Positions 11,998-62,697 of a DNA stretch of 64,000 nt are shown piece by piece. The translations under genes were made by a program, and so were the position numbers. The stretch's first letter is position 1. Every line of letters starts with the position of its first letter. The DNA comes from Elusimicrobiota bacterium (lineage in GTDB: Bacteria > Elusimicrobiota > Elusimicrobia > 2-01-FULL-59-12). The notes under the pieces were generated by a model that was not told where the DNA came from, made no database searches, and worked only from the letters and a program-made list of their open reading frames with translations. The stretch is taken from the NCBI GenBank assembly GCA_041660185.1, contig JBAZWU010000011.1:28883-92882 (forward strand), written 5' to 3'.

Positions 11998-12341
11998 TTT
12001 GATCTCCGAAAATCTTCCCAATAGTTTTTTGCCAGTCCGATGTCTTTCCGGGCCTGAGTACTTTTGTCTCCCCCGCAGAGCAGCACGATGAGCGTGTTGC
12101 GCCATTCAGCAAAATAGACCCGGTAACCGGGCCCAACATAAAACTTCAGTTCCCAAATTCCGTCCCCGACGGCACCGCATCGGCCCATAAGCCCAAGACG
12201 GACGCGCGCCAAACGGGCCCGCAGAGCATCCACAAAGACCGGATGTTTGAGTGAGTCTCTCCATTCCAGAAAAGGGCACGTTCCATCCTCTTTTTCGTAA
12301 TAGATGATTTGTCGCGGTGTCGGTTCCAGGCCATCTTCCTT
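11991..12341 (-). CDS. type II toxin, RelE/ParE superfamily 'addiction module killer' (HigB-like); no canonical in-frame start codon upstream of a GTG at 12233
   Basis: My translation of the minus strand gives '...IIYYEKEDGTCPFLEWRDSLKHPVFVDALRARLARVRLGLMGRCGAVGDGIWELKFYVGPGYRVYFAEWRNTLIVLLCGGDKSTQARKDIGLAKNYW'. This is the typical family sequence. The frame is open back to a stop at 12342-12344, but with no ATG/GTG/TTG before residue V at 12233. Confidence 0.6.
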   Translation of the reverse strand, partial: KEDGLEPTPRQIIYYEKEDGTCPFLEWRDSLKHPVFVDALRARLARVRLGLMGRCGAVGDGIWELKFYVGPGYRVYFAEWRNTLIVLLCGGDKSTQARKDIGLAKNYWEDFRRSNV

Positions 12342-12431
12342 TCAAATTGTGTGTTATAAACGACAACTCGTCAAGTCGTTTCTGTTCTACTAATTTAGAG
12401 CACTGAACCATCCAAATATTCATTTCCTCGG

Positions 12432-12440
12432 TGCTATAAT
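12432..12440 (+). promoter_or_regulatory. extended -10 promoter element (TGcTATAAT) for ssrA
   Basis: 'tgctataat' ends 10 nt upstream of the tmRNA 5' end (GGGGCUGA at 12450). Confidence 0.45.
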
Positions 12441-12449
12441 CACTTTATT

Positions 12450-12816
12450 GGGGCTGAATAGGTTCGACAGGATTGGACGGAGCGGACAGTCGCAGGCCCT
12501 GGTTGGTCGAATCCAGGTAAAAAGTCGGCCAAAACACAACTGGCGAATACGCCCTCGCTGCCTAAACAACAGCGTGCCCTCGGCTTTTAAGCTGAGGCGC
12601 TCTCTCCGGCCCCGCCTGTGGGCGGAGTCAGAGCGTCATCATGCAGGCTAGGATCGGTTCTCTCGCCCTGAAGAGCTGATCCGAAATCCAGCAGGGCTAG
12701 TTCTTACGAAGGCCGTTCTCAGCCTGAGTAAGGTCGAAACCTAAAAGGGGACTAAGCTTGTAGGGACCCCGCTAGGCTAATCTTGGACCCGGGTGCAATT
12801 CCCGGCAGCTCCACCA
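12450..12816 (+). ncRNA. ssrA: tmRNA (SsrA), about 367 nt, predicted tag peptide GQNTTGEYALAA
   Basis: The 5' end 'GGGGCUGAAUAGGUUCGACAGG' pairs with the 3' end '...GGACCCGGGUGCAAUUCCCGGCAGCUCCACCA' (a tRNA-Ala-like acceptor/T-arm with a G3:U pair). The internal ORF 'GUC GGC CAA AAC ACA ACU GGC GAA UAC GCC CUC GCU GCC UAA' (12527-12565) ends in the YALAA* degradation tag. Confidence 0.9.
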
Positions 12817-12825
12817 CTTCAATAG

Positions 12826-12870
12826 AAAAGCCGGCACTTCTTCGTCAGAGGAGGTGTCGGCTTTGCTTTT
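12826..12870. terminator. intrinsic terminator after ssrA (possibly bidirectional with the convergent pilin-like gene)
   Basis: 'aaaagccggcac' (12826-12837), a 17-nt loop, then 'gtgtcggcttt' and 'gctttt'. This is an 11-bp stem with one G-U pair followed by a T tract. The opposite strand also has a T-rich tail. Confidence 0.5.
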
Positions 12871-12897
12871 GGACCAACTTAAAAAGGAGGGTAAATC

Positions 12898-13209
12898 CTA
12901 CCGATGGGGCGGGACGTACGCGGAAGGAATTCTGCTGATGTATTTTTGTACCAGAGAGTTGATATCCGTTGGATACGTTCCTGCGTTGTCGCTGTAATAA
13001 ATGCTGAGGGCGGAACGGAGCGCTCCAAGGTTGCCTTTGGTCACTCCCTCCTGTGCTTTAGAAACCATATCGGCAAACCGCGGAATCGCGATCGCGCAAA
13101 GAATGGAGATGATCGCGACCACGATCATGAGTTCAATTAATGTGAATCCGGACTGGCAGGGTCTCTGACAACCGTGGAATCCATCGAAACGAGTTAGTCT
13201 AATATCCAA
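12898..13209 (-). CDS. prepilin-type N-terminal cleavage/methylation domain protein (type IV pilin / T2SS pseudopilin-like)
   Basis: 'QSGFTLIELMIVVAIISILCAIAIPRF' is the canonical G|FTLIE prepilin motif plus hydrophobic helix. The leader before G is unusually long in this ORF, so the true start may be internal. Confidence 0.7.
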   Translation of the reverse strand: MDIRLTRFDGFHGCQRPCQSGFTLIELMIVVAIISILCAIAIPRFADMVSKAQEGVTKGNLGALRSALSIYYSDNAGTYPTDINSLVQKYISRIPSAYVPPHR

Positions 13210-26756: not shown

Positions 26757-26886
26757 CCCTCACCCCAACCCTCTCCCTCAGCAGGGGGAGGGAGTTTCAG
26801 ATTCTCTGCACGTTTCCTTTCCCTCTCCCTGTTGAGGGAGAGGGAAAGCCGGACGGCCGCAGGCCGGACAGGCGCGGGTGAGGGCA
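26757..26886. repeat. ~130-bp composite palindromic repeat (P/G/E-coding 'GEG' element), copy A, intergenic between convergent genes
   Basis: 'ccctcaccccaaccctctccctcagcagggggagggag' ... 'ccctctccctgttgagggagaggg' ... 'gggtgaggg'. It contains nested hairpins with 10-bp perfect stems. The family recurs at 49348, 58021, 58447 and 59307. Confidence 0.8.
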
Positions 26887-36937: not shown

Positions 36938-38592
36938 GACTGAATTTTAGACGAACCTTCTGGCTTCTGGCTGTTCCCCTTGGATTTTTCCAAGCCTGGG
37001 CCCTCCGGTTTAACATGGACCCCGACGGGATTTCTTATCTCGAAGTGGCTCAAGCCTATGCGCAAGGCCGATGGAACGACGCCTTCAACGCCTACTGGAG
37101 CCCGCTCTTTTCATGGATCCTGGCGGTCTTCCTGAAAGTGGTACATCCTTCCTCTTACTGGGAATTTCCGCTGATTCACCTGATCATTTTTTTCATTTAC
37201 CTGTTTGTGCTGGCAAGCTTTGACGACCTGCTCCGGCAGTTCCTGGCCTGGCACAAGACCCCCGCCGCCGATGCGGATCCCGGCTGGCACACGCTTCCGG
37301 AAGCGCTCTGGGAATGGATCGGGTACGCTCTGATTCTCTGGTGCACACTCTGGGCCCTGGGCCTGGCGCAAGCCACACCCAACCTGCTGGTGAGCGGATT
37401 TATTTTTCTGTCGGTCGGAATCGCTTTCCGTCTGCAGCGGGAAAATGTCTCCGGATGGCTTTATGTTTTATCGGGAGTCGTCCTTGGATTCGCTTATTTT
37501 GCCAAAGCCTATGCGTTCCTTTTCGGAGTGGCCTGGATCCTGGGGATGACGGGCGCGGCCTTTCTTCAGCGGCGGCCTATTCGACGTTATGCGCTGACCT
37601 TGGCTGTTTTTATTATCGTAACCGGCCCTTATATAGGCCTGTTGTCCCGGACGAAAAAACACTGGACCTTTGGCGACGCTTCATCCATCAATTACGCGGT
37701 CCATGTCAATCAAGCCCTTCCCTTGCCTTTCTGGACCGGGGATTTCCCGCCTGGCAGCGTGGCCAAACGCCTGGTTCGACAAATCATGAACCATCCGACG
37801 ATTTATGAATTTGATCGAGACATTCCTGCCAGTTTTCCCCTCTGGTATGACCCGGCTTACTGGATGGACGGCTTACGGCCCCGTTTTTCTGTCCGGGATC
37901 ACCTGAGCGCCTGGCGCGGGCATCTGAATGAATACACCCGGCTTCTTTTTTATGAACAGATCAGTCTCTGGACCGGAACGTTGATTCTCTTCGGGATGGC
38001 CCGGCGCTGGAAGCGGCTGATCAAACACGGGTGGCCGCTGCTGGTGCCGGCGCTGATCGGCTTTGGCATCTTCGCTCCGGTGCTGATGGCCAACAGCTAC
38101 ATCGCGCCGTTTATTGTTCTCGGCTGGCTGGGGATTCTGGCTGGGTTGGAATTTCCAACCGATGGGGTCACTTCGCGATGGTTGAGGCGCGTCGCGGGCG
38201 TTATGATCGCTGTCCCGCTTCTGCAAGTCGGTTACCGAATCGTCTCAGTTGTGCCGACGCGTTCAACCCCGTTCCACTGGCAGGTGGCGCAGAAGCTGCA
38301 CGAGTTAGGCCTGCGTCCGGGGGACCGGGTGGCGAGCTTTGACACCGGCTTTGGACAGTTCTGGGCGCATATCGGCGGATTTCGCCTGATCGCTGAAATT
38401 ACCGTTCCTGAGGAAGTGACCCTTATTACTCCGTCGAAGATGACGGAAATCGTTGGGGTCTTACGGGCGAAGGGCATTCGCGCATTCGTGGGACGGCAGG
38501 AACTGATTCCAGAAGACAGCCTCGGCGGCTGGCAACAACTTCACAACACACCTTACGCCGTTTACCTGATCAACCCAACTGAGGGGACGTAG
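36934..38592 (+). CDS. GT-C fold membrane glycosyltransferase (ArnT/PMT-like), paralogue 2 (ATGA overlap with paralogue 1)
   Basis: 'MRLNFRRTFWLLAVPLGFFQAWALRFNMDPDGISYLEVAQAYAQGRWNDAFNAYWSPLFSW' parallels paralogue 1. Its ATG at 36934 overlaps the TGA of the upstream gene. Confidence 0.6.
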   Translation: MRLNFRRTFWLLAVPLGFFQAWALRFNMDPDGISYLEVAQAYAQGRWNDAFNAYWSPLFSWILAVFLKVVHPSSYWEFPLIHLIIFFIYLFVLASFDDLLRQFLAWHKTPAADADPGWHTLPEALWEWIGYALILWCTLWALGLAQATPNLLVSGFIFLSVGIAFRLQRENVSGWLYVLSGVVLGFAYFAKAYAFLFGVAWILGMTGAAFLQRRPIRRYALTLAVFIIVTGPYIGLLSRTKKHWTFGDASSINYAVHVNQALPLPFWTGDFPPGSVAKRLVRQIMNHPTIYEFDRDIPASFPLWYDPAYWMDGLRPRFSVRDHLSAWRGHLNEYTRLLFYEQISLWTGTLILFGMARRWKRLIKHGWPLLVPALIGFGIFAPVLMANSYIAPFIVLGWLGILAGLEFPTDGVTSRWLRRVAGVMIAVPLLQVGYRIVSVVPTRSTPFHWQVAQKLHELGLRPGDRVASFDTGFGQFWAHIGGFRLIAEITVPEEVTLITPSKMTEIVGVLRAKGIRAFVGRQELIPEDSLGGWQQLHNTPYAVYLINPTEGT

Positions 38593-38658
38593 TTGCAACT
38601 TTGCATCGACTACGCCTCTCGTTGGCAAAGACAGCTGCAAAGTTGCAACTACGTCCCC
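38583..38658. repeat. REP pair (BIME-like): 23-bp 'GGGGACGTAGTTGCAACTTTGCA' and its inverted copy separated by 30 bp
   Basis: Forward copy 38583-38605, inverted copy 38636-38658. They sit between convergent gene ends. Confidence 0.85.
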
Positions 38659-49347: not shown

Positions 49348-49436
49348 CCCTCACCCCTACCCTCCCCCTCCGCAGGGGGAGGGAGCACAACCTATCTTCC
49401 CCCTCTCCCTCAGGAGGGAGAGGGCTGGGGTGAGGG
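49348..49436. repeat. P/G/E-coding palindromic 'GEG' repeat, copy B (intergenic, upstream of wza-like gene)
   Basis: 'ccctcacccctaccctccccctccgcagggggagggag...ccccctctccctcaggagggagagggctggggtgaggg'. Confidence 0.8.
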
Positions 49437-52209: not shown

Positions 52210-53367
52210 TTGATGTCTTTGGCTATGAAATCCCCTCACAAACCGGCGTTCGAGCTTCAACTCCTATGCAAACTCCTGGCTTTGCGGCCAAGCCAGGAGG
52301 AATGTCTTTCAGACCTCCGCGCACCAGGTTTTTGCTGGGATCTATTCCTTCAGTTGGCGGAGTACCACGGGGTGATCGGATTTCTCTACGAGGCCCTGAC
52401 CGAAACCGGCCTGGCCCGGGAAGTTCCACCCAAGCTCCTGGAAGCGCTGCGGCATTCCACTCTGGTTCTCCTGGAAGAGCACCTGCAGCACAGGAGCGCG
52501 ATCCGGAAAACGCTGGAAACCCTGAACGCGGCCGGGTTGGAATTTATCGTTATTAAAGGGTGGTCACACGCCGAATCACTTCATGGGAACCCCTGCGCCC
52601 GTCCCATCACGGACCTGGACCTTCTCGTACACGACACGAAGGCGGCTCAAGCCCTGCTGAAACAACAGAGACTGCCGGACCCATCGATCGTAGACTGGCA
52701 TATCTATCCCACAAACACGTCGGATCTGCCGTCCCGCATGCGGTGCCTGCAGCTCGACATCCAGACGCTCTGGGCGGATTCGCGCCTCGCCACGATCACA
52801 GACACGCCGGCGCGCGTTCTTTCTCCGGCTGACCAGGTCATCGCCCTGGTGATCGACTTCACGATTTCGCATGGGTTCGGGAGGCTACTCCTTTTAAAGG
52901 AGATCCTGCTTCTGGCTGAAAAAGTCGGATGGGATGCGCTGGTGAAGAGGGCTCAACTATTCCAGGCTGACATTTTGCTGTACTTGACCCTCCGCATGGG
53001 AGAGGAACTTCTGCGATTCCCGGTTCCCCTCGATATTTTAAAAATCTTAGGGACTCGCTTAAGGCAAGAAGAACACTGGCTGGAAAAACGGCTGATTCAA
53101 AATCCGCTTTTTACCCCGGCCCGGTATTTCTGTATTCCGATTCTCCTGCCTTCCTGGGCCGATCGCCTGAGTTTTGCCAAAGAACTGCTCTGGCCTCCCC
53201 CCTATTGGTTCGAGCTCCGCAGCGAAAAACCGTCTCTCTGGCGCCACCTCATCCATGACGCGACGCTTATCGGCAAGGCATGCGCCATTTTATGGAACGT
53301 CAGGGGACGTAGTTGCAACTTTGCAAAAGGTGCCGGAAAAAATCCTTTTTTCCCCAAGACCGGGTAA
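52210..53367 (+). CDS. uncharacterised nucleotidyltransferase family protein (PF14907/NTP_transf_5-like), RiPP-cluster accessory type
   Basis: 'LNAAGLEFIVIKGWSHAESLHGNPCARPITDLDLLVHDTKAAQALLKQQ' matches the IKG...R..DIDLLV...D signature of this family. Confidence 0.65.
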   Translation: MMSLAMKSPHKPAFELQLLCKLLALRPSQEECLSDLRAPGFCWDLFLQLAEYHGVIGFLYEALTETGLAREVPPKLLEALRHSTLVLLEEHLQHRSAIRKTLETLNAAGLEFIVIKGWSHAESLHGNPCARPITDLDLLVHDTKAAQALLKQQRLPDPSIVDWHIYPTNTSDLPSRMRCLQLDIQTLWADSRLATITDTPARVLSPADQVIALVIDFTISHGFGRLLLLKEILLLAEKVGWDALVKRAQLFQADILLYLTLRMGEELLRFPVPLDILKILGTRLRQEEHWLEKRLIQNPLFTPARYFCIPILLPSWADRLSFAKELLWPPPYWFELRSEKPSLWRHLIHDATLIGKACAILWNVRGRSCNFAKGAGKNPFFPKTG

Positions 53368-53423
53368 AACAAGAAATATAGGCCATTTCCTGTCTCGTTG
53401 TGCAAAGTTGCAACTACGTCCCC
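53303..53423. repeat. REP pair: forward 23-bp REP (53303-53325) and inverted copy (53401-53423) with 75-bp spacer
   Basis: Exact matches to GGGGACGTAGTTGCAACTTTGCA and its reverse complement. They sit between the nucleotidyltransferase and ABC ATPase genes. Confidence 0.85.
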
Positions 53424-53446
53424 TGACGTTTTATATACTCAAACGT

Positions 53447-54190
53447 GTGACTTGTTCCATCGACGTACGGGGTGTTTCGAAATCGTTTTTCCCGCGGCTC
53501 TCTTTATTAAAACCCTGGCAGCCGAGGCCCCCCGTCCGCGCGCTCAATCACGTGAACCTCCGGGTGGAAACAGGAACGGTTTTCGCCCTGCTGGGCCCGA
53601 ATGGTTCCGGCAAAACGACCCTCCTCAAAATCATCAGCACGCTTCTGATGCCGGATGCCGGGACGCTTCGCGTGCTGGGTCACGTCCTGCCGGGGCAGGA
53701 GGAACGCGTCAAAACGCGAATCAGTTTCGCCATGGGAGACGAGCGAAGTTTCTACTGGCGCCTGACCGCCCGGCAGAACTTGATGTTTTTTGCTGCGCTC
53801 TATGATCTTTCCCCCCGGCAATCCGAACAAAAGATCGCTGAACTGGGTGACGTGTTCAGCCTGAAAGACTACCTTGACCGCCCCTACGAAGAACTCTCAT
53901 CCGGGATCCGGCAGCGCCTGGCGATCGCGCGATCCTTTCTGAACGACGCGGCCCTCCTGCTGGCCGATGAACCCACCCGCAGCCTCGATGCGGCCGCCAG
54001 AAACGCGCTTCACGGACTTCTTCAAAAACTCGTGCGGGAACACGGAAAAACGATTCTCTTCACAACGCATAATTTTGAGGAAGCCCGACGGGTGGCGGAC
54101 ACGGTAGGGATTTTGAATCAGGGCCGGCTTTGTTACTCCGGAAAATGGAAAGACGGCCTGGAGAGTTACCTCAATGCCCCCGCTTCGTAA
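53447..54190 (+). CDS. ABC transporter ATP-binding protein
   Basis: 'LLGPNGSGKTTLLKII' is Walker A, 'LSSGIRQRLAIARSF' the signature, 'LLLADEPTRSLD' Walker B. A GTG start at 53447 is chosen downstream of the REP; the listed ORF starts earlier inside repeat DNA. Confidence 0.85.
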   Translation: MTCSIDVRGVSKSFFPRLSLLKPWQPRPPVRALNHVNLRVETGTVFALLGPNGSGKTTLLKIISTLLMPDAGTLRVLGHVLPGQEERVKTRISFAMGDERSFYWRLTARQNLMFFAALYDLSPRQSEQKIAELGDVFSLKDYLDRPYEELSSGIRQRLAIARSFLNDAALLLADEPTRSLDAAARNALHGLLQKLVREHGKTILFTTHNFEEARRVADTVGILNQGRLCYSGKWKDGLESYLNAPAS

Positions 54191-54989
54191 ACTCTGGGCT
54201 TTTTCCCTCCGGGACTGGCAGCTCGCCCAGACGTATCGCTTTACTTTTTTGTTTGAGGTGGTCCGCACGCTGATCTTGCTGCTCTCGTTTTATTTCATCG
54301 GCAAATTGGTCCGGAGCAGCGGTGTTCACCCATCCCTGGCTGTATACGGAGGCGATTACTTTCGCTTCGTCCTTTTGGGCATCGTGTTCAGCGGCTTCAT
54401 GTCCACCGCTCTGGGCAGCGTGCGGCAGACGATTGAATTTGAACGGGGGCATGGGACATTGGAAGCCATTTTACTGACCCCCACTCCCCTGATCACGCTC
54501 GTGATCAACAAAACCCTGTGGGATCTCGGCATGGTCACAGCCAAGGCCGTCCTGTATCTCCTGGCAGGAGTTTACTTTTTTCGAGTGGATCTCTCGCACG
54601 TTTATTGGACCAGCACGCTGGTGGCCATCGCTTTGACAGTCAGCACCTTTTTTGGTTTAGGGCTGATCTCCGCCGGTATTCATTTACTCATCCGGGAAGA
54701 CAGCCCTTTGGACCTGATTTTGGAAGGAGCCTCGCGCTTCCTGGGAGGCGTTTATTTCCCGGTGGCGGTTCTTCCCGCGCCTCTTCTCGCGCTGTCCCGC
54801 TGGGTGCCGCTCACCTATGCGCTCGACGCGATCCGAAAATCCATGATTCTTGGAGCTTCGCTTCAAACCATCCGGATGGAACTACTGGTGCTGGCAGGGT
54901 GTTCGATCGTTCTGGTTCCGATCGGCGTGATCTGTTTTCAGAGCGCTTTCAAGACCGCCCGACGCAGGGGAATTCTCAGCTTCGAGTAG
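54174..54989 (+). CDS. ABC-2 type transporter permease
   Basis: 271 aa, 6 TM. Overlaps the ATPase stop. The ABC-2 family topology is typical. Confidence 0.75.
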   Translation: MPPLRKLWAFSLRDWQLAQTYRFTFLFEVVRTLILLLSFYFIGKLVRSSGVHPSLAVYGGDYFRFVLLGIVFSGFMSTALGSVRQTIEFERGHGTLEAILLTPTPLITLVINKTLWDLGMVTAKAVLYLLAGVYFFRVDLSHVYWTSTLVAIALTVSTFFGLGLISAGIHLLIREDSPLDLILEGASRFLGGVYFPVAVLPAPLLALSRWVPLTYALDAIRKSMILGASLQTIRMELLVLAGCSIVLVPIGVICFQSAFKTARRRGILSFE

Positions 54990-55745
54990 GGTTTTACAAA
55001 GAAAGGCCATCGGCGCTGAAGGTTCCCCAGCCTGCTGGAAACCCAGGGACCGGTAAAGTCGGAGGGCAGCTTGATTATCCGATTCCACCGTTAAACAAAG
55101 TTCTCTGACCCCTTGTTGGCGTGCCGTCCGTATCAGCTCCCCTAACAACAAAGTCGCGATTCCGCCGCCGCGGACCCAAGCGCGGACAAGCAGGTCTTTG
55201 ATGTTTTCCTTTTGATTCGGCTTGACGACGAGAAAAACATAACCGGCTTTCCAAGAACCGATAAAGGCCTGAAAAACAAAGGCGCCCTCTTCTTCCATCC
55301 GATTAATCCGGACCCGCGAAGCCAAATAAACCCTGAACAACACACGGTATAAATGGAAAGACTGGACCCAGGACAAAACCCGGATTCCCGCCATTTTCAC
55401 TTGTCGCTTCATCCAGGAAGGCCCGTATCGAATGAACAGAAAAAGGAAATACCGTCTCCGAAGATCTTTTTCAAGGAAAATTCGGCTTCCCCGTTTGACC
55501 ATTTCCAAGCGACCGATCAATTGATCTTCGCGGATCCATTCGATCGCTAGCGGAAGCTCATCTCCTGCTACTCCGAAATAATTTGGCCCAGCCGACAATC
55601 GCCTGATGCACCTCAACCGGTGAGCCACCGGGTTATCGTGTTCCGTCTGGCGATAAAGCAGGATGTCTCCAATTTTGAGGGTGGTTGATGATGAGAAGGC
55701 CCGGACAAAAAGCTCATCGCCCGGGCGAAGGAAGGGCTGCATACT
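54882..55745 (-). CDS. fusion: S24/S26-type (signal-peptidase/LexA-like) serine peptidase domain + GNAT N-acetyltransferase domain
   Basis: The N-region 'GGSMQPFLRPGDELFVRA...IGDILLYRQ' matches the GDSMxPTL..GD box of Ser-Lys dyad peptidases. The C-region 'VRGGGIATLLLGELIRTARQQGVRELCLTVESDNQAALRLYRSLGF' is the GNAT acetyl-CoA binding motif. The start is placed at the internal Met; the ORF's first residues are REP-encoded. Confidence 0.55.
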   Translation of the reverse strand, partial: SMQPFLRPGDELFVRAFSSSTTLKIGDILLYRQTEHDNPVAHRLRCIRRLSAGPNYFGVAGDELPLAIEWIREDQLIGRLEMVKRGSRIFLEKDLRRRYFLFLFIRYGPSWMKRQVKMAGIRVLSWVQSFHLYRVLFRVYLASRVRINRMEEEGAFVFQAFIGSWKAGYVFLVVKPNQKENIKDLLVRAWVRGGGIATLLLGELIRTARQQGVRELCLTVESDNQAALRLYRSLGFQQAGEPSAPMAFLCKTLLEAENSPASGGLESALKTDHADRNQNDRTPCQHQ

Positions 55746-55785
55746 GCCACCCTCGGCCCGGCAGAAAAACGAGCCGGGAGCACTA

Positions 55786-55863
55786 GGGGACGTAGTTGCA
55801 ACTTTGCATAAGGTATTCATATGACACAAGATACCTTTGATGCAAAGTTGCAACTACGTCCCC
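55786..55863. repeat. REP pair: forward REP (55786-55808) and inverted copy (55841-55863) around a palindromic 32-bp spacer
   Basis: Exact 23-bp matches. The spacer 'taaggtattcatatgacacaagatacctttga' is itself an inverted repeat. Confidence 0.85.
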
Positions 55864-55887: not shown

Positions 55888-56091
55888 TCAGGACGTGGTG
55901 GCGCCGGAATCCCGGGCGGTTGTCACGCTTGCCCGCCGGCAACCGTTGGAGGTCCGACATCCCTTTGTTCCTCTGACAGACAAGCTGGTGCCGCTTCGTG
56001 TGCATGTGCTGAGAATGGCCTGCTCCCGGCGGAGCACAACTTGGGTGATTTGCGGGGACTGATACGGCTTTTTTTCAGTTACAGTCGTCAT
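55888..56091 (-). CDS. candidate RiPP precursor peptide (67 aa: leader MTTVTEKKPYQSPQITQVVLRREQAIL; Cys/Ser/Thr/Arg-rich core)
   Basis: The ATG starts immediately after the TAA of the upstream radical SAM gene. A strong SD 'AGAGGGAGAG' lies 5-14 nt upstream. My translation gives MTTVTEKKPYQSPQITQ... as listed. The core has 3 Cys and 18 Ser/Thr. Confidence 0.5.
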   Translation of the reverse strand: MTTVTEKKPYQSPQITQVVLRREQAILSTCTRSGTSLSVRGTKGCRTSNGCRRASVTTARDSGATTS

Positions 56092-57141
56092 TTAGCTCTC
56101 CCTCTGTGCGATAAACATCGCTTTTTTCTCCGCGACTTCCCGAAAATAGGGCATGCAAGGGGCATCAAATGCTTTTTGGTCCAACCAACCATCCATGCTT
56201 CCCCGATCGCAATGAAACGCGATCGGACAGGATGAGCACGCGTAGGCAGGGCCCGGCTTCTGCGCCGCGACAAACTTCACCAACGTTTGCCAGCCTTTTT
56301 CAACCGACCCCGCCGTCACATCATACGACGGATGATGGATGCAGACACAAAGATTCATCCGGCCATGAGGCGTCAAAGCGGCGTTGCTCTTGCCACAAAG
56401 ACAATCGAACAGTTTCCCGGCGGAACCGCATTTCCCCTCCAAGGATCCGCCGGCCTCTTGCATTGGCTTTCCGCTATTTTCACGCCATATCTCGAAAACC
56501 CTGGCAGGCGACAACCGGTACATCAAGGGTTCTTTTGAACCGTCCACTCTGGGATAGATGTCCGTGCCGATCCGATAGGGCAGTTGACGGGACCGGGCGA
56601 AGTCTTTCATGGGCTCCAGTTCGTGTTCATTCAGCGTCATCAAAACGAGTTTCAGCAGGATGGGGATATGCCTTTCTTTCAGCCAATCAACCCCCTCGAC
56701 AAAATGAGCGTAGGAACCGGGGATGCGCGTCACAGATTCATAACTGTCAGCCGTGGCGCCATAAACGGAAATTTCCACCAGATAAGGATCCAACTCCGCC
56801 ATCTGATCCGCCAGCGCCGGCGTGATCAGAGTGGCGTTCGTAGTGATCGTAATCACCATCCCAAGTGAGCGGGCATACCGCATAATCTCACAGGCATCCC
56901 GCCGGGTGAACACCTCTCCTCCGGTGAAACCGATCCACAGGCATCCCTGAGCCGCCATCTCATCTAACAGTCGGTAAACCTGTTCCGTGGTCAGTTCCTG
57001 TTTCGCTTCGTGGGTTGTGTTATAACAGTGCACGCAGCGCAGGTTGCAGCCGTACGTCAGCTCCACCGTGGCCTGAATCCACTGCGGACGGGCCTTGGCG
57101 TCCTCACTCAGCTGATCGATGAATTGATCAAACTCTTTCAT
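56092..57141 (-). CDS. radical SAM/SPASM domain peptide-modifying enzyme (rSAM-1)
   Basis: 'TYGCNLRCVHCY' is CxxxCxxC. The C-terminal Cys-rich SPASM region is 'CGSAGKLFDCLCGKS...CVCIHH...CSSCPIAFHCDRG'. The start is placed at 'MKEFDQ' (14-nt overlap with the kinase gene). Confidence 0.85.
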   Translation of the reverse strand: MKEFDQFIDQLSEDAKARPQWIQATVELTYGCNLRCVHCYNTTHEAKQELTTEQVYRLLDEMAAQGCLWIGFTGGEVFTRRDACEIMRYARSLGMVITITTNATLITPALADQMAELDPYLVEISVYGATADSYESVTRIPGSYAHFVEGVDWLKERHIPILLKLVLMTLNEHELEPMKDFARSRQLPYRIGTDIYPRVDGSKEPLMYRLSPARVFEIWRENSGKPMQEAGGSLEGKCGSAGKLFDCLCGKSNAALTPHGRMNLCVCIHHPSYDVTAGSVEKGWQTLVKFVAAQKPGPAYACSSCPIAFHCDRGSMDGWLDQKAFDAPCMPYFREVAEKKAMFIAQRES

Positions 57142-58012
57142 AAAGATAACGGACGATACGGTTGTCTTGAGTAAAGCGCAGTTCGCCGCTGGGAACATCC
57201 TTGACCAGGCGGGTCGCTGCCTCCACGAGCCGTGCCATGGCTTCCTGATTCCAAAGAGGCAAATACGCTTCCGTGAAAATCGATTTCAATACGGGCTGAG
57301 GCGGCCGCGGGAGAAACTGATTGTCCGTCGCCTGGACCAGAACTGAAAAACGCTTGAGAAGCGCTGCCCCCTTGGAAACCTGCCGAAGCTCGCCGTGCCA
57401 GGGCGTTCCCGCTACGTGCCAGTGTTTTCCCTCCCGCCAGAGAAGAATACGCTCGTCATTCAGCACCTGAGCGGAAGAATGTGTCCGGAAGAGCCTGGAA
57501 ATCGTGGTCTTGCCGGCGCCGGAGTGACCGATGAATGCCAGCCCCTTGCCCGACAGAGAAACCGCTGCCCCATGCAAAATCATCCCTTTCCTCCGAAGCG
57601 CCAGCCAGCCGGTCAGCCACCATTGGATCAAAGGCTCGGCCACATCTCCCAGGTACCACCCCTTCTGGCGAAGCCCGGGTGACCGGTACGTGAGCGGAAT
57701 CAGATGGAGATCGATTTGATCCCACTTCGGGGTGATGAAACACACCTGCCTGGGCAGAAAATGCATTTGTTCCAGAATTTCCAATCGCACTCTGCCCCTC
57801 TCCTGGTAGACGCGCCATTGATTGGGAAGCTCATAAAGGAAGCGGGGCTTCCCATGCGGCTTGGGCGCATCGGTCCGGACCTGGATGGTCACGGTCGGCG
57901 GGAGAGAATTTCTGTCTTCAAAGACACCGCAAAATTCATGCGGCCAATCATGCGGCGGGGTATCCGCGATAAATCGAATGACGGCAGGGCCGATTTTGAT
58001 AGTGAGCTTCAT
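57128..58012 (-). CDS. HPr kinase/phosphorylase C-terminal-domain-like protein (HprK-related kinase)
   Basis: 'GMILHGAAVSLSGKGLAFIGHSGAGKTT' is a P-loop in the HprK-C context. It overlaps the rSAM-2 stop (ATGA) and the rSAM-1 start. Confidence 0.7.
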   Translation of the reverse strand: MKLTIKIGPAVIRFIADTPPHDWPHEFCGVFEDRNSLPPTVTIQVRTDAPKPHGKPRFLYELPNQWRVYQERGRVRLEILEQMHFLPRQVCFITPKWDQIDLHLIPLTYRSPGLRQKGWYLGDVAEPLIQWWLTGWLALRRKGMILHGAAVSLSGKGLAFIGHSGAGKTTISRLFRTHSSAQVLNDERILLWREGKHWHVAGTPWHGELRQVSKGAALLKRFSVLVQATDNQFLPRPPQPVLKSIFTEAYLPLWNQEAMARLVEAATRLVKDVPSGELRFTQDNRIVRYLYERV

Positions 58013-59274
58013 GACGATGCCCCCTCACCCCTACCCTCCCCCTCAACAGGGGGAGGGAGCGTAAGATTTTTCGCGGATGTATCCCCTCTCCCTGCTGAGG
58101 GAGAGGGGCTGGGGGTGAAGGTCAAGATGCTGGCAGTTTGCCGAGCTTTCGCTACTTCACAGAAATAAGGGACCGGCGCTTCCATGGACCCTGCCTCATG
58201 GATCGCCATCACGGGATTTTTGTCGCAGAACAGATGGGAGGAACAACTCCGGCACGCCGACTCCCCGGTGTAGCGGGCCTGATTGATTTCCTCGGCTGAG
58301 CGCTGGAACGCCTCGGAAACAGGGATCGTTTTCAGATCATACGACGGCCAGGTGGTGAACGTGCAGGGGCGAAACACACCGTACGGACTGACCGTCAATT
58401 GATTGGTCCCGCATCCGCAGCGAAAGAGCCGGTCATCCGGGGGGGGACCCTCACCCCAACCCTCCCCCTCAACAGGGGGAGGGAGTATGAAATCTGCGGG
58501 GGATCCCCCCTCTCCCTGTTGAGGGAGAGGGCAAGCAGGACGACCGCTAGGTCGGACAGGCGCGGGTGAGGGTTTACACTCCTCTGCCACCTCCAGTTCA
58601 GCCACCTCGGCTCCAGATAACCGGTACTGCGTGGAGGAAAGGTCCCCGTTCAAACGCGGGTAAATCGTGGGATAGAGACTGAAATCCACCCCCAATCCTT
58701 CCACGTACGCTCTGATCTCGCCCAATTCCTGACGATTAACGGTCATGGCCTTGGTTTTGATCGCCACCGACAAACGCCGGTCCAGTAACCGGCGGATCCC
58801 TGCCTGAAAACACGCGTAGGAACCCGGCACCTGGGTCACCCGCTCAAAGGTCTCGGCACGAACGCCATGCAAACTCACCTCCAACTGAAAGGGAGGGTCC
58901 TTGGCGAGAAAATCCGCGATCTCGTCCGTGATCGTTGTCCCGTTGGTGAATAACGCGATCAGGAATCCTCTCTCCTTGGCCGCACGATATATATCCTTGA
59001 ATCGCGGATGAAGTACCGCTTCTCCTCCGGTGAGGGTAAGCCAGAGCACGCCGGCGGAGGCCAGGTCGTCAAGAATCCGGATCATTCCCGGCAGCGGCAA
59101 TTCCCGCGACAACGCCGTCGGGGTGTTAAAGGGGTCTGTAAAACAATGGACGCAATGGAGATTACATCGGTAAGTCAGTTCCAACTGTGCCTTGAGAGGA
59201 CTCCGATTTTCGACGCTCCGGGAAAAGACCCGGGCGCTGAACACACTGTACATTTCTTCTTGAAACTTGCTCAT
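58009..59274 (-). CDS. radical SAM/SPASM domain enzyme (rSAM-2) carrying in-frame repeat-encoded P/G/E-rich linker and C-terminal tail
   Basis: 'TYRCNLHCVHCF' is the rSAM motif. SPASM 'CGCGTN...CTFTT...CRSCSSHLFCDK'. The segment 'PLPQQGEGGSPADFILPPPVEGEGWGEGPPP' between the rSAM and SPASM domains and the tail 'LPPPVEGEGRGEGASS' are encoded by the palindromic repeats at 58447-58572 and 58021-58120. Confidence 0.8.
   Translation of the reverse strand: MSKFQEEMYSVFSARVFSRSVENRSPLKAQLELTYRCNLHCVHCFTDPFNTPTALSRELPLPGMIRILDDLASAGVLWLTLTGGEAVLHPRFKDIYRAAKERGFLIALFTNGTTITDEIADFLAKDPPFQLEVSLHGVRAETFERVTQVPGSYACFQAGIRRLLDRRLSVAIKTKAMTVNRQELGEIRAYVEGLGVDFSLYPTIYPRLNGDLSSTQYRLSGAEVAELEVAEECKPSPAPVRPSGRPACPLPQQGEGGSPADFILPPPVEGEGWGEGPPPDDRLFRCGCGTNQLTVSPYGVFRPCTFTTWPSYDLKTIPVSEAFQRSAEEINQARYTGESACRSCSSHLFCDKNPVMAIHEAGSMEAPVPYFCEVAKARQTASILTFTPSPSPSAGRGDTSAKNLTLPPPVEGEGRGEGASS
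58021..58120. repeat. P/G/E-coding palindromic 'GEG' repeat, copy C (overlapping rSAM-2 3' end / HprK-like start)
   Basis: 'cccctcacccctaccctccccctcaacagggggagggag...cccctctccctgctgagggagaggggctgggggtgaagg'. Confidence 0.8.
58447..58572. repeat. P/G/E-coding palindromic 'GEG' repeat, copy D (long variant), inserted in-frame inside rSAM-2
   Basis: 'ccctcaccccaaccctccccctcaacagggggagggag...cccccctctccctgttgagggagagggcaagcaggacgaccgctaggtcggacaggcgcgggtgaggg'. It shares its tail with copy A (26757-26886). Confidence 0.8.
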
Positions 59275-59306: not shown

Positions 59307-59396
59307 ACCCTCATCCGGCCTGCGGCCACCTTCCCTCTCAACAGGGGGAAGGACATTCTCCCTCTCCCTGTTGAGGGAGAGGGGACGGGGGTGAGG
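59307..59396. repeat. P/G/E-coding palindromic 'GEG' repeat, copy E (intergenic between rSAM-3 and rSAM-2)
   Basis: 'ccttccctctcaacagggggaagga...ccctctccctgttgagggagaggggacgggggtgaggg'. Confidence 0.8.
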
Positions 59397-59397
59397 G

Positions 59398-61575
59398 TTA
59401 AATGGTTTGGACAGCACCGATCGCCCGAAGTTCCGACAAATACGTCGCGACGTCCTGTTCGGCAACAGCGGAATCCACTGTAAATGCTTTTCCCAGCAAC
59501 GCTGTCAGTTCCCGGCCCGTACGCCGGCCGTCAATCTGTTCCCACAGGAAAGCGCCGACCTCATTCAACGTATAAAGAGATGGCTCCTGATTCGGCTGCC
59601 GGTTCGCGGGAACCAGAACCATCTCCCCCGCCACCCGGCGGGCCACCATCGTCGGGCACTTTTGAAACCGAAAATCCAGCTGTTCTGTTGAAGCCGCCAT
59701 GATCGTTCCTCCGCTTTTTTTCAGGTTCTGTATGATGCTGTTCCAGTTCTGTCGGGCGGCCGGCCACTCCGGGTCCAACTCCATCAAGCGCTCGTATTCC
59801 CGCAGGGCCGGTTCCCACTGTTTGAGAAATTCTTCCTTGTAAGCGGGCGTAGCATACAACGTTCGATAAGAGGGGTCCAGGGAAATCATCCGCTCCCAGG
59901 CTTCCCGGGCCGACGGGACATCGTTCCGCCCGAGGGCTTCGCAGACTTGCTCATAAACGCGCGCCGCCGAGCCGGCAGGCGGTTGATCCTCGACGAGAGC
60001 AGCGGGATCCAGCAGCGCGCGCTGAATGAGATCGCCGAAATATTTGTACCGCAGCGGCGTGTATCCTTTATTGACCGAGTACGAAAGGGTCACAAAGTCC
60101 GTCGGCAGCTCAACGGCCCGGAGACGCCGGAGAAAGTGACTCGGCTGCAGCCAGGGACCGGCGTAGTCGCTGTCAAAATACGGAAACAATCCAGTCCCGT
60201 CGATGTGGCGAGTCAGGAGATAATCCACATCGATGTCCAGGAGAACCGGTTTTATAAAGCGGGGCAGCGACTCCAGCCGGCACACCGTCAACGGGCATCC
60301 CATCAATAGGAGATGAATCCCTGTCTCGGAAACCCGTAAAGGGCCTGCCGAATCCGGTCTCGCATGAATCATTTCGTTAATCCATTGAATGAGTTTCTGC
60401 CGTTGGTCAGGGGTTTCCCAAAAACCATCAGGGATGACCCAATAAAGCTCGCGGATGAAGCCTTCCCGGATGGCTGGATAAAGGAAATTACCACTGTCCA
60501 TCGCTTTATGCGGAGGATGGTCATCGATCCAGAAAAAATCCAGATGACCGTCCAGATGAATCAGGGTTCGGCCCTGGACTCCAGCGTCTTTCCAGAGGGT
60601 GTAGGCCGTCTCATGATCTTCCATCAGATGGATCGACTTCGAAGGAATCGGATCAGCCGCCGCCAGGGATTTCTTTCGGGGGCAGGGAAAGCTCGGCAGC
60701 GCTTTGTAAAACCCTTCCAGAAAGGAGCCTCGTCTCAAGTCGTAGCTGGCCCGCCGGTTGTTGGAACACAGCTGAAGCTGCCCGTACGCATCGATGTGGA
60801 ATTTGTAGCGTCCCCCCTGACAGGGGAAGTCATCGGGGTATGTGGCGTGGCCGTCACGCTCCCGCTCCGCCCAGAGCTGAGGGTCCTGACGCTCGATGGC
60901 CGCCAGGTCTTTGTCGGACAACTGGAATCGCAGAGGGGCTCCACTGCCGGTCAGATCATCGAGCAGGTGTTCTCCAAACTGAAAAGACACGCCGGGACCG
61001 AAGTCGTCCACATAACGTTTGATCGCCAAAATCTCGTCCCGGTTCAGCGTCGTCCCCACTGTTTTCAACGTCACCGGGATCTGCCGTTCCATCAAAAGCC
61101 GAACCGCCTCCACATTCAGGGGACGTAGTTGCAACTTTGCACAAACAGCATCAGAGATCGCATGAAGGCTGATTTCCACCCGCACGGGAGGCATCCTGGC
61201 CCATTGATCGGCGATCTCGCGCGTGATGAGCGTTCCATTGGAGAAAACCGTAATGAGAAATCCAAAACGGTGAGCGGTTTCATAAATCTCCATGAAATCA
61301 GGCCGGCACAGCGGCTCCCCGCCGGTGAACGTGACTTCCAGGCAACCCGCGGCCTGGATCTCATGGAGAATGCGAAGGATGTCAGCGGTAGGAAGCTCCT
61401 GACGGATCCGCTCCGGCGTATTGAAACAATCCGTATAGCACATGGCACACGTCAGATTGCACCGGCAGGTGAGTTCCCACTGGCCGACCAAAGGAGCGCG
61501 ACCCTGGAGAGAACGGGCCAAGACTTGATCGCCGAAAACCTGCGATGAGCGGGTCGGGAAAGCGGGGATGGCCAT
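59398..61575 (-). CDS. multidomain protein: radical SAM (twitch/SPASM-like) domain + ~300-aa uncharacterised domain + TPR-like segment + C-terminal PqqD-like (RRE) domain (rSAM-3)
   Basis: 'LTCRCNLTCAMCY' is the rSAM cluster motif. The middle has a 'HLDGHLDFFWIDD' metal-site-like motif. The C-terminus 'LYTLNEVGAFLWEQIDGRRTGRELTALLGKAFTVDSAVAEQDVATYLSELRAIGAV' matches the PqqD fold pattern. The start is placed at 'MAIPAF'; the listed ORF starts within a REP. Confidence 0.75.
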   Translation of the reverse strand: MAIPAFPTRSSQVFGDQVLARSLQGRAPLVGQWELTCRCNLTCAMCYTDCFNTPERIRQELPTADILRILHEIQAAGCLEVTFTGGEPLCRPDFMEIYETAHRFGFLITVFSNGTLITREIADQWARMPPVRVEISLHAISDAVCAKLQLRPLNVEAVRLLMERQIPVTLKTVGTTLNRDEILAIKRYVDDFGPGVSFQFGEHLLDDLTGSGAPLRFQLSDKDLAAIERQDPQLWAERERDGHATYPDDFPCQGGRYKFHIDAYGQLQLCSNNRRASYDLRRGSFLEGFYKALPSFPCPRKKSLAAADPIPSKSIHLMEDHETAYTLWKDAGVQGRTLIHLDGHLDFFWIDDHPPHKAMDSGNFLYPAIREGFIRELYWVIPDGFWETPDQRQKLIQWINEMIHARPDSAGPLRVSETGIHLLLMGCPLTVCRLESLPRFIKPVLLDIDVDYLLTRHIDGTGLFPYFDSDYAGPWLQPSHFLRRLRAVELPTDFVTLSYSVNKGYTPLRYKYFGDLIQRALLDPAALVEDQPPAGSAARVYEQVCEALGRNDVPSAREAWERMISLDPSYRTLYATPAYKEEFLKQWEPALREYERLMELDPEWPAARQNWNSIIQNLKKSGGTIMAASTEQLDFRFQKCPTMVARRVAGEMVLVPANRQPNQEPSLYTLNEVGAFLWEQIDGRRTGRELTALLGKAFTVDSAVAEQDVATYLSELRAIGAVQTI
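61119..61141. repeat. single REP copy lying in-frame inside the rSAM-3 coding sequence (encodes ...AKLQLRPL...)
   Basis: Exact 23-bp 'ggggacgtagttgcaactttgca'. Protein length around it appears normal for the rSAM fold. Confidence 0.8.
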
Positions 61576-61592: not shown

Positions 61593-62621
61593 TCAGGGGA
61601 CGTAGTTGCAACTTTGCATATTGAGTCTTTCCTTAAGCTCAAACCGATGGGCCAGGCGCTGACCTCGTTCAAATGCCCTGCTGGCGGTGCTCGTTGATAG
61701 AACGAGTTGCTTCCCCATCCCGGTGACAGATTGCTTAAACCAGACTACTCCGGCATATACCGCCATGGCCTTCGCATCTGACAGCGCGCGCCGCTGACCC
61801 GTTTCGGAAAAGTAATGGGGGTCTTCTCCGGTCAGATCGGCAATAAGATCCAATACCTTTTCAAAATTGATTGATTTTGGAATGGGCGTTTCATCACAAC
61901 CGTCTTTCGCCTTGCGCAGGGTTTCTTCCACAAAAGCACTGTCCCCCAGCAAACGTAGGTCGTACGCGTAGGCTTCACCGCTTCTGATGGCCTGCAGAGC
62001 AGGACCTCCCCCTCCCCAACTACGAATAAGTCCGCCTCCTTCTAACTGGTCCTGTCGTTTCTGACTCCAAGCCTCCATTACAAATAATTCGTAGTTTGCC
62101 CGCGCCTGGCGCAAAGTCGGGCCAAAACGTTCAAGAACTTTCCCGGCAACCTGCCAGGGCCTGTCTAAGGTACCCATCAGAGCCGAGTGGCTTGTCCAAG
62201 GATAGACAGCCAGTTCAGAAGGCGATCGGACAATTCCCGCGCGCACTGGGTTAAGAGCGATATAACGTATCAGCTCCAGAAAATAGGGATCCTCCTGACA
62301 GATGATGTCCTTGTATCGGTTTTGAAACAAATGACCGGCGCGCTGATAGCGCAGGTTAAATGAGACGGCATACCCAGTCAAAAGCTTTTGCATGACCCGA
62401 GAAATGCGCGTGGAAGCCGTCTGGAGCAACAGGTGCAGGTGATTAGGCATGAGCGCCCAGGCGTAACAGAGGGTTTTCGTTTCTTGGAGGATGCGACCTA
62501 ACCGGTCGGCGAATTCGGAGTAATCTCGATTTGATCTAAAAATAGAGCGTTTTTCAATTCCCCTCGCGATTACGTGATGAAAGAGTCCAGGGAAGTCGAT
62601 ACGAGGTAAACGTGGCATCAC
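61593..62621 (-). mobile_element. REP-associated tyrosine transposase (RAYT; IS200/IS605-family Y1 HUH transposase) with ~190-aa C-terminal extension, flanked by inverted REPs (61596-61618 and 62665-62687)
   Basis: 'MPRLPRIDFPGLFHHVIARGIEKRSIFRSNRDYSEFADRL...YAWALMPNHLHLLLQT' contains the HuH motif (HLH) and the Y1 architecture. The REP at its 3' end encodes the C-terminal '...MQSCNYVP'. An inverted REP with 1 mismatch lies 44 bp upstream of the start. Confidence 0.75.
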
Positions 62622-62697
62622 TTACTTAGATAAAGTTTTTGGCGATATATTCGAGGGGGTGCTATGAAAAGTTGCAACTACGTCCCCTGACGTTGGT

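Follow-up and report, generated by a model that had tools for sequence, protein, structure and literature searches.

What is the role of a protein with a kinase-like P-loop whose gene overlaps its neighbours on both sides, within a run of genes for radical S-adenosylmethionine (rSAM) enzymes, and which residue would such a protein phosphorylate? The question is raised by a stretch of 64,000 nucleotides (nt) from an Elusimicrobiota metagenome-assembled genome (MAG), hereafter the window, in which a minus-strand open reading frame (ORF) with an ATG start (57128-58012) encodes 294 amino acids (aa). The identical protein carries the NCBI locus tag WC859_09175 and is labelled 'hypothetical protein'. 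An earlier note, made from the DNA sequence alone, had described it as an HprK-related kinase embedded in a cluster for a peptide that is made on ribosomes and modified after translation (RiPP). Taking sequence, structural modelling and analogy together, we propose, with a probability of roughly 60%, that the protein uses ATP to phosphorylate the adjoining precursor peptide at its invariant C-terminal Ser, which would make it a peptide serine kinase. The features of the gene on which this proposal depends are:

57128-58012, minus strand: ScmC-family (PF27840) P-loop kinase-like protein with the fold of HprK and phosphoenolpyruvate (PEP) carboxykinase (PEPCK), 294 aa (ORF, precomputed Pfam match, AlphaFold2 model, Foldseek)
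57572-57574, minus strand: codon of His147, the 'LHG' histidine ahead of the P-loop, invariant in 26 close and 78 divergent homologues
57503-57529, minus strand: Walker A motif G162-H-S-G-A-G-K168-T-T170 (sequence; conservation in homologues)
57449-57457, minus strand: Asp186-Glu187-Arg188 (N-D-E-R; S-D-D-R in the wider family), with D186 invariant

Fold and catalytic-type residues of the kinase-like protein

The AlphaFold2 model of the protein, calculated with an alignment of 26 homologues as input (predicted local distance difference score, pLDDT, 93.1; predicted template modelling score, pTM, 0.89), consists of an N-terminal beta-rich domain (approximately residues 1-105) and a C-terminal P-loop domain. 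All 50 matches listed when this model was compared with the PDB by Foldseek are PEP carboxykinases or HPr kinase/phosphorylases (HprK/P), with probabilities of 0.98-1.00 and E values of 6e-6 to 3e-4; the ATP- and GTP-dependent PEP carboxykinases match over the whole length (E from 6e-6), and the HprK/P entries 1knx, 1kkl, 1jb1 and 2qmh give E values of 1e-5 to 2e-4. Fold prediction was needed here because sequence searches alone are weak: searches of PDB sequences, both with the single protein and with a profile, return essentially P-loop matches to ABC transporters, and HprK/P appears only at E ~0.03 over residues 137-204. As modelled, the protein is a P-loop kinase-like protein with the HprK-C/PEPCK fold.

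The earlier note had named the lack of an HprK-C-type fold, or a degenerate Walker motif in orthologues, as findings that would speak against a kinase; the fold is present in the model and its structural matches, and the motif is intact. Residues H147, G162, S164, A166, G167, K168, T170, D186 and R188 are invariant in all 26 close homologues, and H147, G167, K168 and D186 in all 78 divergent representatives (20-45% identity), the consensus of which reads H-x14-GxSGAGKST-x15-SDDR. At the fourth position of this His-Lys-Asp-acidic set, the window protein and most of the 26 close homologues have Glu (Glu187), and the wider-family consensus has Asp.

Family placement

The identical protein (P0001) and most homologues have a precomputed match to PF27840.1, 'ScmC', and this annotation provides a link to the SynChlorMet cassette named in NCBIfam. 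Our own Pfam scan, made with a copy of Pfam without the PF27840 model, assigned no family and found no PF07475 match at E<=0.01. The protein scores 12.4 bits against TIGR04249 ScmC (cut-off 125), 13.7 bits against TIGR04352 HprK-related kinase A (cut-off 200), 26.2 bits against TIGR04355 HprK-related kinase B (cut-off 200; residues 139-204, E 4e-6) and 12.4 bits against TIGR00679 HprK (cut-off 240), and is thus a member of none of these families. These models and PEPCK match its 26 close homologues to different extents (HprK_rel_B 25, best E 5.9e-8; PEPCK 22; HprK_rel_A 21; TIGR04249 just 18, best E 1.3e-5), and among the 78 representatives sub-threshold matches were obtained to HprK_rel_B (50), ScmC (23), Hpr_kinase_C (20), HprK_rel_A (12) and PEPCK_ATP (7). 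The label 'HprK-related kinase' therefore stands as a description of the fold, but the protein lies outside HprK and the curated HprK-related A and B families, and its home is PF27840. The A and B families, although the best NCBIfam matches, share with it only the His-P-loop-Asp region, some 65 residues; HprK/P and ATP-dependent PEP carboxykinase have the fold in common with it, together with the Walker A motif and the His before and Asp after this motif, and differ in N-terminal domain, substrate and genomic context, with family thresholds that the window protein does not reach.

The family is very large. At least 4,658 clusters (90% identity) match at E<=1e-3, and 50%-identity representatives number 22,618 at E<=1e-3, 10,410 at E<=1e-10 and 1,529 at E<=1e-30; nearly all members are annotated as hypothetical. 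A pattern-limited search of GTDB species-representative genomes returned two distant relatives only.

The precursor peptide and its C-terminal serine

The candidate substrate is encoded by a small ORF whose ATG immediately follows the stop codon of the rSAM gene downstream of the kinase (TAAATG):

55888-56091, minus strand: 67-aa precursor with leader KKPYxxPxIxxVxLRxEQAIL, Cys30, Cys45, Cys51 and Ser67 (codon 55891-55893) (sequence and family)

In an alignment of this precursor, positions Y10, P13, I15, L20, R21, E23, A25, L27, C30, C45, C51 and S67 are invariant. A profile search for the precursor family yielded 229 clusters of 60-84 aa, all unannotated, and the statistics that follow rest on 120 homologues from these (P0027-P0146; median pairwise identity 39%). 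Exactly three Cys are present in 117 of the 120 peptides. The last residue is Ser in 119 and Thr in one, with an entropy of 0.07 bit at this position compared with 1.5-3.4 bit at positions -2 to -12. The earlier note had pointed to a Ser/Thr-rich core, and 15 of the 38 residues of the window peptide from the first Cys onward are indeed Ser or Thr (family-wide, 16% Ser and 10% Thr over this region); the conserved candidate for a target is, however, the C-terminal Ser, whereas the Ser and Thr residues of the core vary. Peptides with this C-terminus also accompany relatives of the kinase in clusters with a single rSAM gene: members of four such, more distant clades (L010, L014, L015 and, in a Nitrospirae genome, L001) adjoin a PqqD gene and a peptide with three or four Cys that ends in Ser (...CFSIGS, ...CFTQGS, ...CFVIGS and ...CPSPSS).

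Beyond the terminal residue, the precursors have a D-S-G-x-R-P-S motif in their tail (positions -7 to -1) that is semi-conserved, and the Cys spacings are constrained, with 14-18 residues from C1 to C2 and 4-12 from C2 to C3. One related locus (L003/L004) contains four tandem paralogous precursor genes of the 65-aa type (12097-13143), all ending in ...DSTGSPS, which follow an rSAM-kinase-rSAM block and precede two genes for B12-binding rSAM enzymes.

Gene junctions and conservation of the cassette

The kinase gene belongs to an operon-like run on the minus strand with the order rSAM-3/PqqD fusion, rSAM-2, kinase, rSAM-1, 67-aa ORF and S24-peptidase/GNAT fusion; genes for a PF14907 nucleotidyltransferase and an ABC-2 transporter lie on the plus strand and converge with it. 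The junctions on either side of the kinase are:

58009-58012, minus strand: ATGA junction, with the TGA stop of rSAM-2 at 58009-58011 and the kinase ATG at 58010-58012, in the context tcATGAag (sequence)
57128-57141, minus strand: 14-nt overlap of the kinase 3' end with the rSAM-1 start (ATGAAAGAGTTTGA) (sequence and orthologue alignment)

Both overlaps, which the earlier note had reported, are confirmed. The kinase stop falls within tATGAAAGAGTTTGAtc, and the rSAM-1 start is placed at the methionine of MKEFDQF (ATG at 57141) by alignment with five orthologues, although the longest ORF begins at an ATG at 57198. In the gene tables of orthologous loci the kinase start is overlapped by 1-10 nt by the upstream rSAM gene, and ATGA is found at the kinase stop in five of 11 loci; gene order near the kinase nevertheless varies, since it follows all three rSAM genes in L008 and neighbours the peptide gene in place of an rSAM gene in L011 and L013. 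The geometry thus supports translational coupling, and the overlapping reading frames argue for co-transcription as well, without establishing the 'stoichiometric co-expression' that the earlier note had read from them; its placement of the kinase in one operon with overlapping junctions, adjoining what is now a conserved precursor peptide, is supported. A scan for promoters and terminators in the operon gave fewer sites than in shuffled controls. We also considered whether the ATGA junction might be a mere artefact of the repeat insertion that precedes it in the window (see below), and rejected this because orthologues without the insertion overlap the kinase start too.

Searches with the kinase led to the related loci L003/4, L006-L010, L014 and L015, and an independent route by way of the peptide led to L011 (Nitrospira), L012 and L013 (Bdellovibrionota); all three loci reached by the latter route have the kinase. 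What the related loci share is a core with three rSAM genes, PqqD in one or two copies, the kinase and a small ORF, and this cassette is kept across Elusimicrobiota, Nitrospira and Bdellovibrionota. PF14907 occurs in nine of nine loci of the three-rSAM type (counting the window, and L003/L004 as one), and an ABC-2 exporter in most related loci; some also encode an S24 peptidase or a methyltransferase.

Relationship to lasso-peptide kinases and other known systems

Kinases of this fold have a characterised role in lasso-peptide biosynthesis. PadeK, ThcoK, PsmK and SyanK are HPr-kinase homologues encoded in lasso-peptide clusters (PMC9266682, PMC8498205); they depend on a His-Lys-Asp-Asp motif shown to be essential by mutagenesis (PMC9266682), whose His has its counterpart in His147 of the window protein, and PsmK carrying D158A/D159A is inactive (PMC6993621). 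PadeK, ThcoK and PsmK transfer phosphate to the precursor's C-terminal Ser and show little further sequence specificity (PMC9266682, PMC6993621, PMC8498205), and reported polyphosphorylation is on this same residue (PMC9266682). In pseudomycoidin, PsmN, an 'uncharacterised NTP transferase', then adds a hexose to the phosphoserine (PMC6993621). The earlier note had regarded Ser/Thr phosphorylation of a RiPP as unusual; with this precedent from HprK homologues (PMC9266682, PMC6993621), it is not unprecedented.

A tblastn search of plasmids with the window kinase led to a Paracoccus lasso cluster in which the precursor gene is followed by those for PqqD, B2, an asparagine-synthase homologue, a 'serine kinase' and an ABC transporter, in this order. 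The family profile aligns with this serine kinase across both domains (hhalign 96.7%, E 4e-10, 210 columns), D186 pairing with the 'ADD' of the Paracoccus protein, and the Paracoccus precursor ends in Ser and has a YxxPxL leader motif resembling that of the window precursor family. The lasso kinases and the window protein are alike in size (~300 aa), in their two domains, in the HprK-like P-loop domain and in the His/Lys/Asp/acidic motif, and the clusters are alike in PqqD-type leader recognition, an ABC exporter, a YxxPx(L/I) leader and a conserved C-terminal Ser; in both, the kinase is often partnered with an 'uncharacterised nucleotidyltransferase'. The systems differ in that lasso clusters have a lasso cyclase and a B2 protease, both absent from the window cassette, whereas the latter has three rSAM/SPASM proteins and a precursor with three invariant core Cys; identity between the window family and the lasso kinase is ~23%, and the second acidic residue is Glu in the window subfamily. 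Neither an asparagine-synthetase-like nor a transglutaminase-like protein was found in the window cluster, and none came to light in the related loci.

The SynChlorMet system is also comparable, in that ScmC (TIGR04249; PF27840) is a kinase-like protein found with ScmD, ScmE and ScmF, amid PqqD and PqqE-like rSAM/SPASM enzymes. The SCM cassette has two rSAM enzymes, according to its TIGRFAMs description. The window cassette, in contrast, has three, and these score only 67-73 bits against the 400-bit cut-offs of ScmE and ScmF.

Proposed function and alternatives

The best explanation of these sequence comparisons is that the window protein is a full-length homologue of the lasso-tailoring kinases and a fixed, translationally coupled part of a conserved RiPP cassette. 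In the mechanism that we propose, binding of the YxxPxI...EQAIL leader would fall to the PqqD domain and cross-linking of the three invariant Cys to the three rSAM/SPASM enzymes, and the kinase would move a phosphate from ATP onto the hydroxyl of the invariant C-terminal Ser; the nucleotidyltransferase may afterwards add a group to this phosphate, as PsmN does in pseudomycoidin. What we infer from the homology and context described above is that the protein acts as a kinase, which residue it modifies, how the steps are ordered and that the nucleotidyltransferase may take part.

Several points weigh against a C-terminal serine kinase. The window protein is far under every curated NCBIfam cut-off, so the transfer of function rests on remote homology, and most of its subfamily have Glu in place of Asp as the second acidic residue. 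The terminal Ser might be conserved for another reason, for instance because an rSAM enzyme, a peptidase or the exporter recognises it. The single-rSAM relatives have no PF14907 gene in the flanks available, indicating that the nucleotidyltransferase step is not universal; PsmN may itself lie outside PF14907, and a literature search gave no link between PF14907 and lasso peptides. Our literature search found no publication on this kinase family, on the window cassette or on the SynChlorMet cassette; a search combining HprK with SPASM and PqqD returned none featuring HprK, one rSAM-RiPP survey makes no mention of a kinase, phosphorylation, a nucleotidyltransferase or the taxa concerned, and another none of a kinase, Scm, a cassette or the founding genera. 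Finally, the copy of the cassette in this MAG may not be fully functional, because a repeat copy replaces a conserved segment of rSAM-3 (see below).

Two alternatives retain a kinase and move its target. Phosphorylation of several Ser/Thr of the core, as a final modification or as activation for elimination to dehydro-amino acids that react with Cys, would suit the hydroxyl-rich composition of the window peptide and of its family, and lasso kinases can add several phosphates; but those phosphates sit on one C-terminal Ser, that residue alone is invariant among the variable Ser/Thr of the precursors, scans of the cluster proteins against Pfam and NCBIfam detected no lyase or elimination domain, and cross-linking of the three Cys would already be explained by the three rSAM/SPASM enzymes, so that we consider this unlikely. 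Alternatively, the kinase could act on a small molecule and, with the PF14907 enzyme, make an activated donor for the peptide, for example by converting a sugar via its phosphate to a nucleoside diphosphate sugar. A kinase and a nucleotidyltransferase are the canonical pair for sugar activation, the whole-length structural match is PEPCK, itself a small-molecule kinase, and a group of HprK-like, CYTH and PF14907 proteins (L016) occurs in a setting where the ten proteins scanned include none of rSAM, PqqD or lasso type. We judge such a role quite unlikely: the precursor peptide itself is the substrate of the homologous lasso kinases, the kinase occurs without PF14907 in the single-rSAM relatives and in pade-type lasso clusters, and the invariant terminal Ser tracks the kinase rather than the nucleotidyltransferase.

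The remaining alternatives dispense with peptide or small-molecule phosphorylation. A non-catalytic or ATPase-only scaffold or chaperone, holding the precursor or bridging the rSAM enzymes, would explain why the gene overlaps its neighbours on both sides; also in its favour, the N-terminal beta domain lacks an assigned function and the name ScmC (TIGR04249) denotes a cassette protein only. Nevertheless, a pure scaffold is unexpected because the His, the Walker A Lys and Thr and the Asp are invariant over very deep divergence, and the kinase gene changes its place among the rSAM genes from locus to locus; this reading is very unlikely. A genuine HprK/P of carbon metabolism, placed between rSAM genes by chance, is scarcely credible. 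It has in its favour just the shared fold and P-loop region, against a TIGR00679 score of 12.4 where 240 bits are required, no match to PF07475, an all-beta N-terminal domain that resembles PEPCK and not the HprK N-domain, and an association with rSAM, PqqD and precursor genes that is kept across phyla; we rejected it on these failed membership tests and the conserved RiPP cassette context.

Novelty and implications

HprK-type phosphorylation of a RiPP precursor is already known, and the gene family is catalogued as ScmC in Pfam and NCBIfam, a name without a function. What is new here is the precursor family with its invariant C-terminal Ser, the consistent pairing of the kinase cassette with PF14907, and the combination of such a kinase with a three-rSAM/SPASM, three-Cys class of precursor; our literature search brought up no publication on any of these, and the kinase/rSAM combination appears uncharacterised.

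Should a C-terminal serine kinase be correct, a testable function would be available for a very large family named just 'ScmC' or 'hypothetical protein', and its substrate peptides would be identified as the 229 precursor clusters, all without annotation, that bear a clear signature. The module of kinase, C-terminal Ser and nucleotidyltransferase, known only from lasso peptides, would then be a portable unit that also serves rSAM-modified peptides in Nitrospira, Elusimicrobiota and Bdellovibrionota, and a PF27840 protein beside a small ORF ending in Ser would become a genome-mining rule for RiPPs. A broader suggestion, which we make tentatively and hold to be somewhat doubtful, is that the cassette defines a large RiPP class of triply cross-linked three-Cys peptides that are Ser-phosphorylated and then decorated by PF14907 enzymes, that 'ScmC' proteins (with representative clusters numbering at least 10,000 at E<=1e-10) are generally C-terminal-serine kinases, and that the SynChlorMet precursors belong to the YxxPxI...EQAIL...C...C...C...S family.

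Neighbouring genes

The other genes of the cassette and its surroundings are:

56092-57141, minus strand: rSAM/SPASM enzyme 1, 349 aa (Pfam, NCBIfam, alignment)
58009-59274, minus strand: rSAM/SPASM enzyme 2, 421 aa, with two private in-frame repeat insertions (Pfam Radical_SAM; NCBIfam rSAM/SPASM maturase; alignment)
59398-61575, minus strand: rSAM-3, followed by a middle region of ~330 aa and a C-terminal PqqD domain (RiPP recognition element, RRE) (Pfam Radical_SAM and PqqD; alignment)
54882-55853, minus strand: S24/S26-type peptidase fused to a GNAT acetyltransferase, a candidate leader peptidase and N-acetylase (domain scans)
52210-53367, plus strand: PF14907 'uncharacterised nucleotidyltransferase' (NTP_transf_5; Pfam E 3.2e-26)
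53174-54989, plus strand: ABC transporter, comprising an ATPase ORF (53174-54190, true start probably later) and an ABC-2 permease (54174-54989) (domain scans)

By alignment the likely start of rSAM-3 is the ATG at 61575, and the listed ORF extends to 61611. The rSAM-3 enzyme, fused in the window, is encoded by a separate gene in the five aligned orthologous loci (L003, L006, L007, L012, L013), of which L003, L006 and L012 have two separate PqqD genes, and L007 (where it is fused to a TPR protein) and L013 have one. The peptidase/GNAT fusion downstream of the precursor gene suggests that leader removal is coupled to N-acetylation; a stand-alone S24 peptidase lies beside the cassette in L012, L015 and L001.

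In L016, on Bacillus thuringiensis plasmid pST7-2 (CP016196.1, 32692-35573), genes for HprK-like, CYTH-domain and PF14907 proteins lie together, surrounded by carrier-protein, decarboxylase and acyl-CoA dehydrogenase-like genes. This grouping indicates that the pairing of kinase and PF14907 may also occur outside RiPP clusters.

Repeat elements and the state of this copy

Two families of repeats occur in the window. A palindromic element of ~24 nt (CCCTCCCCCTGTTGAGGGGGAGGG type) is present in nine copies in the window, compared with 0 expected from shuffles, at 58034-58107, 58460-58531, 59329-59383, 26769-26844 and 49360-49383; eight copies form oppositely oriented pairs with starts 31-52 nt apart, and the ninth (49360) is single. 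One pair adjoins the kinase gene:

58034-58107, no strand assigned: palindromic pair (CCCTCCCCCTGTTGAGGGGGAGGG type) forming an in-frame C-terminal extension of rSAM-2 (sequence, alignment)

This pair, which is private to the window, supplies the final ~35 codons of rSAM-2, which continue as far as the ATGA, and the kinase start comes shortly after the purine-rich end of the pair. A second palindromic pair (58460-58531) is likewise a private in-frame insertion in rSAM-2. The insertions encode 'PLPQQGEGG...PPPVEGEGWGEG' stretches, which are absent from all five orthologues.

The second family, a repetitive extragenic palindromic (REP) element (AGTTGCAACTACGTCC), has nine exact copies in the window compared with 0.02 expected, mostly as inverted pairs (38585-38656, 53305-53421, 55788-55861, 61121-61136, 61598-61613 and 62670-62685). 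Within rSAM-3, the copy at 61121-61136 has replaced the conserved 'HGxSxxVFExVTQxPGS' by 'HAISDAVCAKLQLRPLNVE', which is four residues shorter and keeps the frame; the enzyme may be impaired as a result, or the region may be an artefact of assembly or recombination. Copies at gene boundaries of the cluster lengthen several of the listed ORFs and appear in their translations, for example as 'CKVATTSP' and 'GRSCNFA', and one pair flanks the gene for a REP-associated tyrosine transposase (61593-62621, minus strand; NF047646, E 3e-17; Y1_Tnp).

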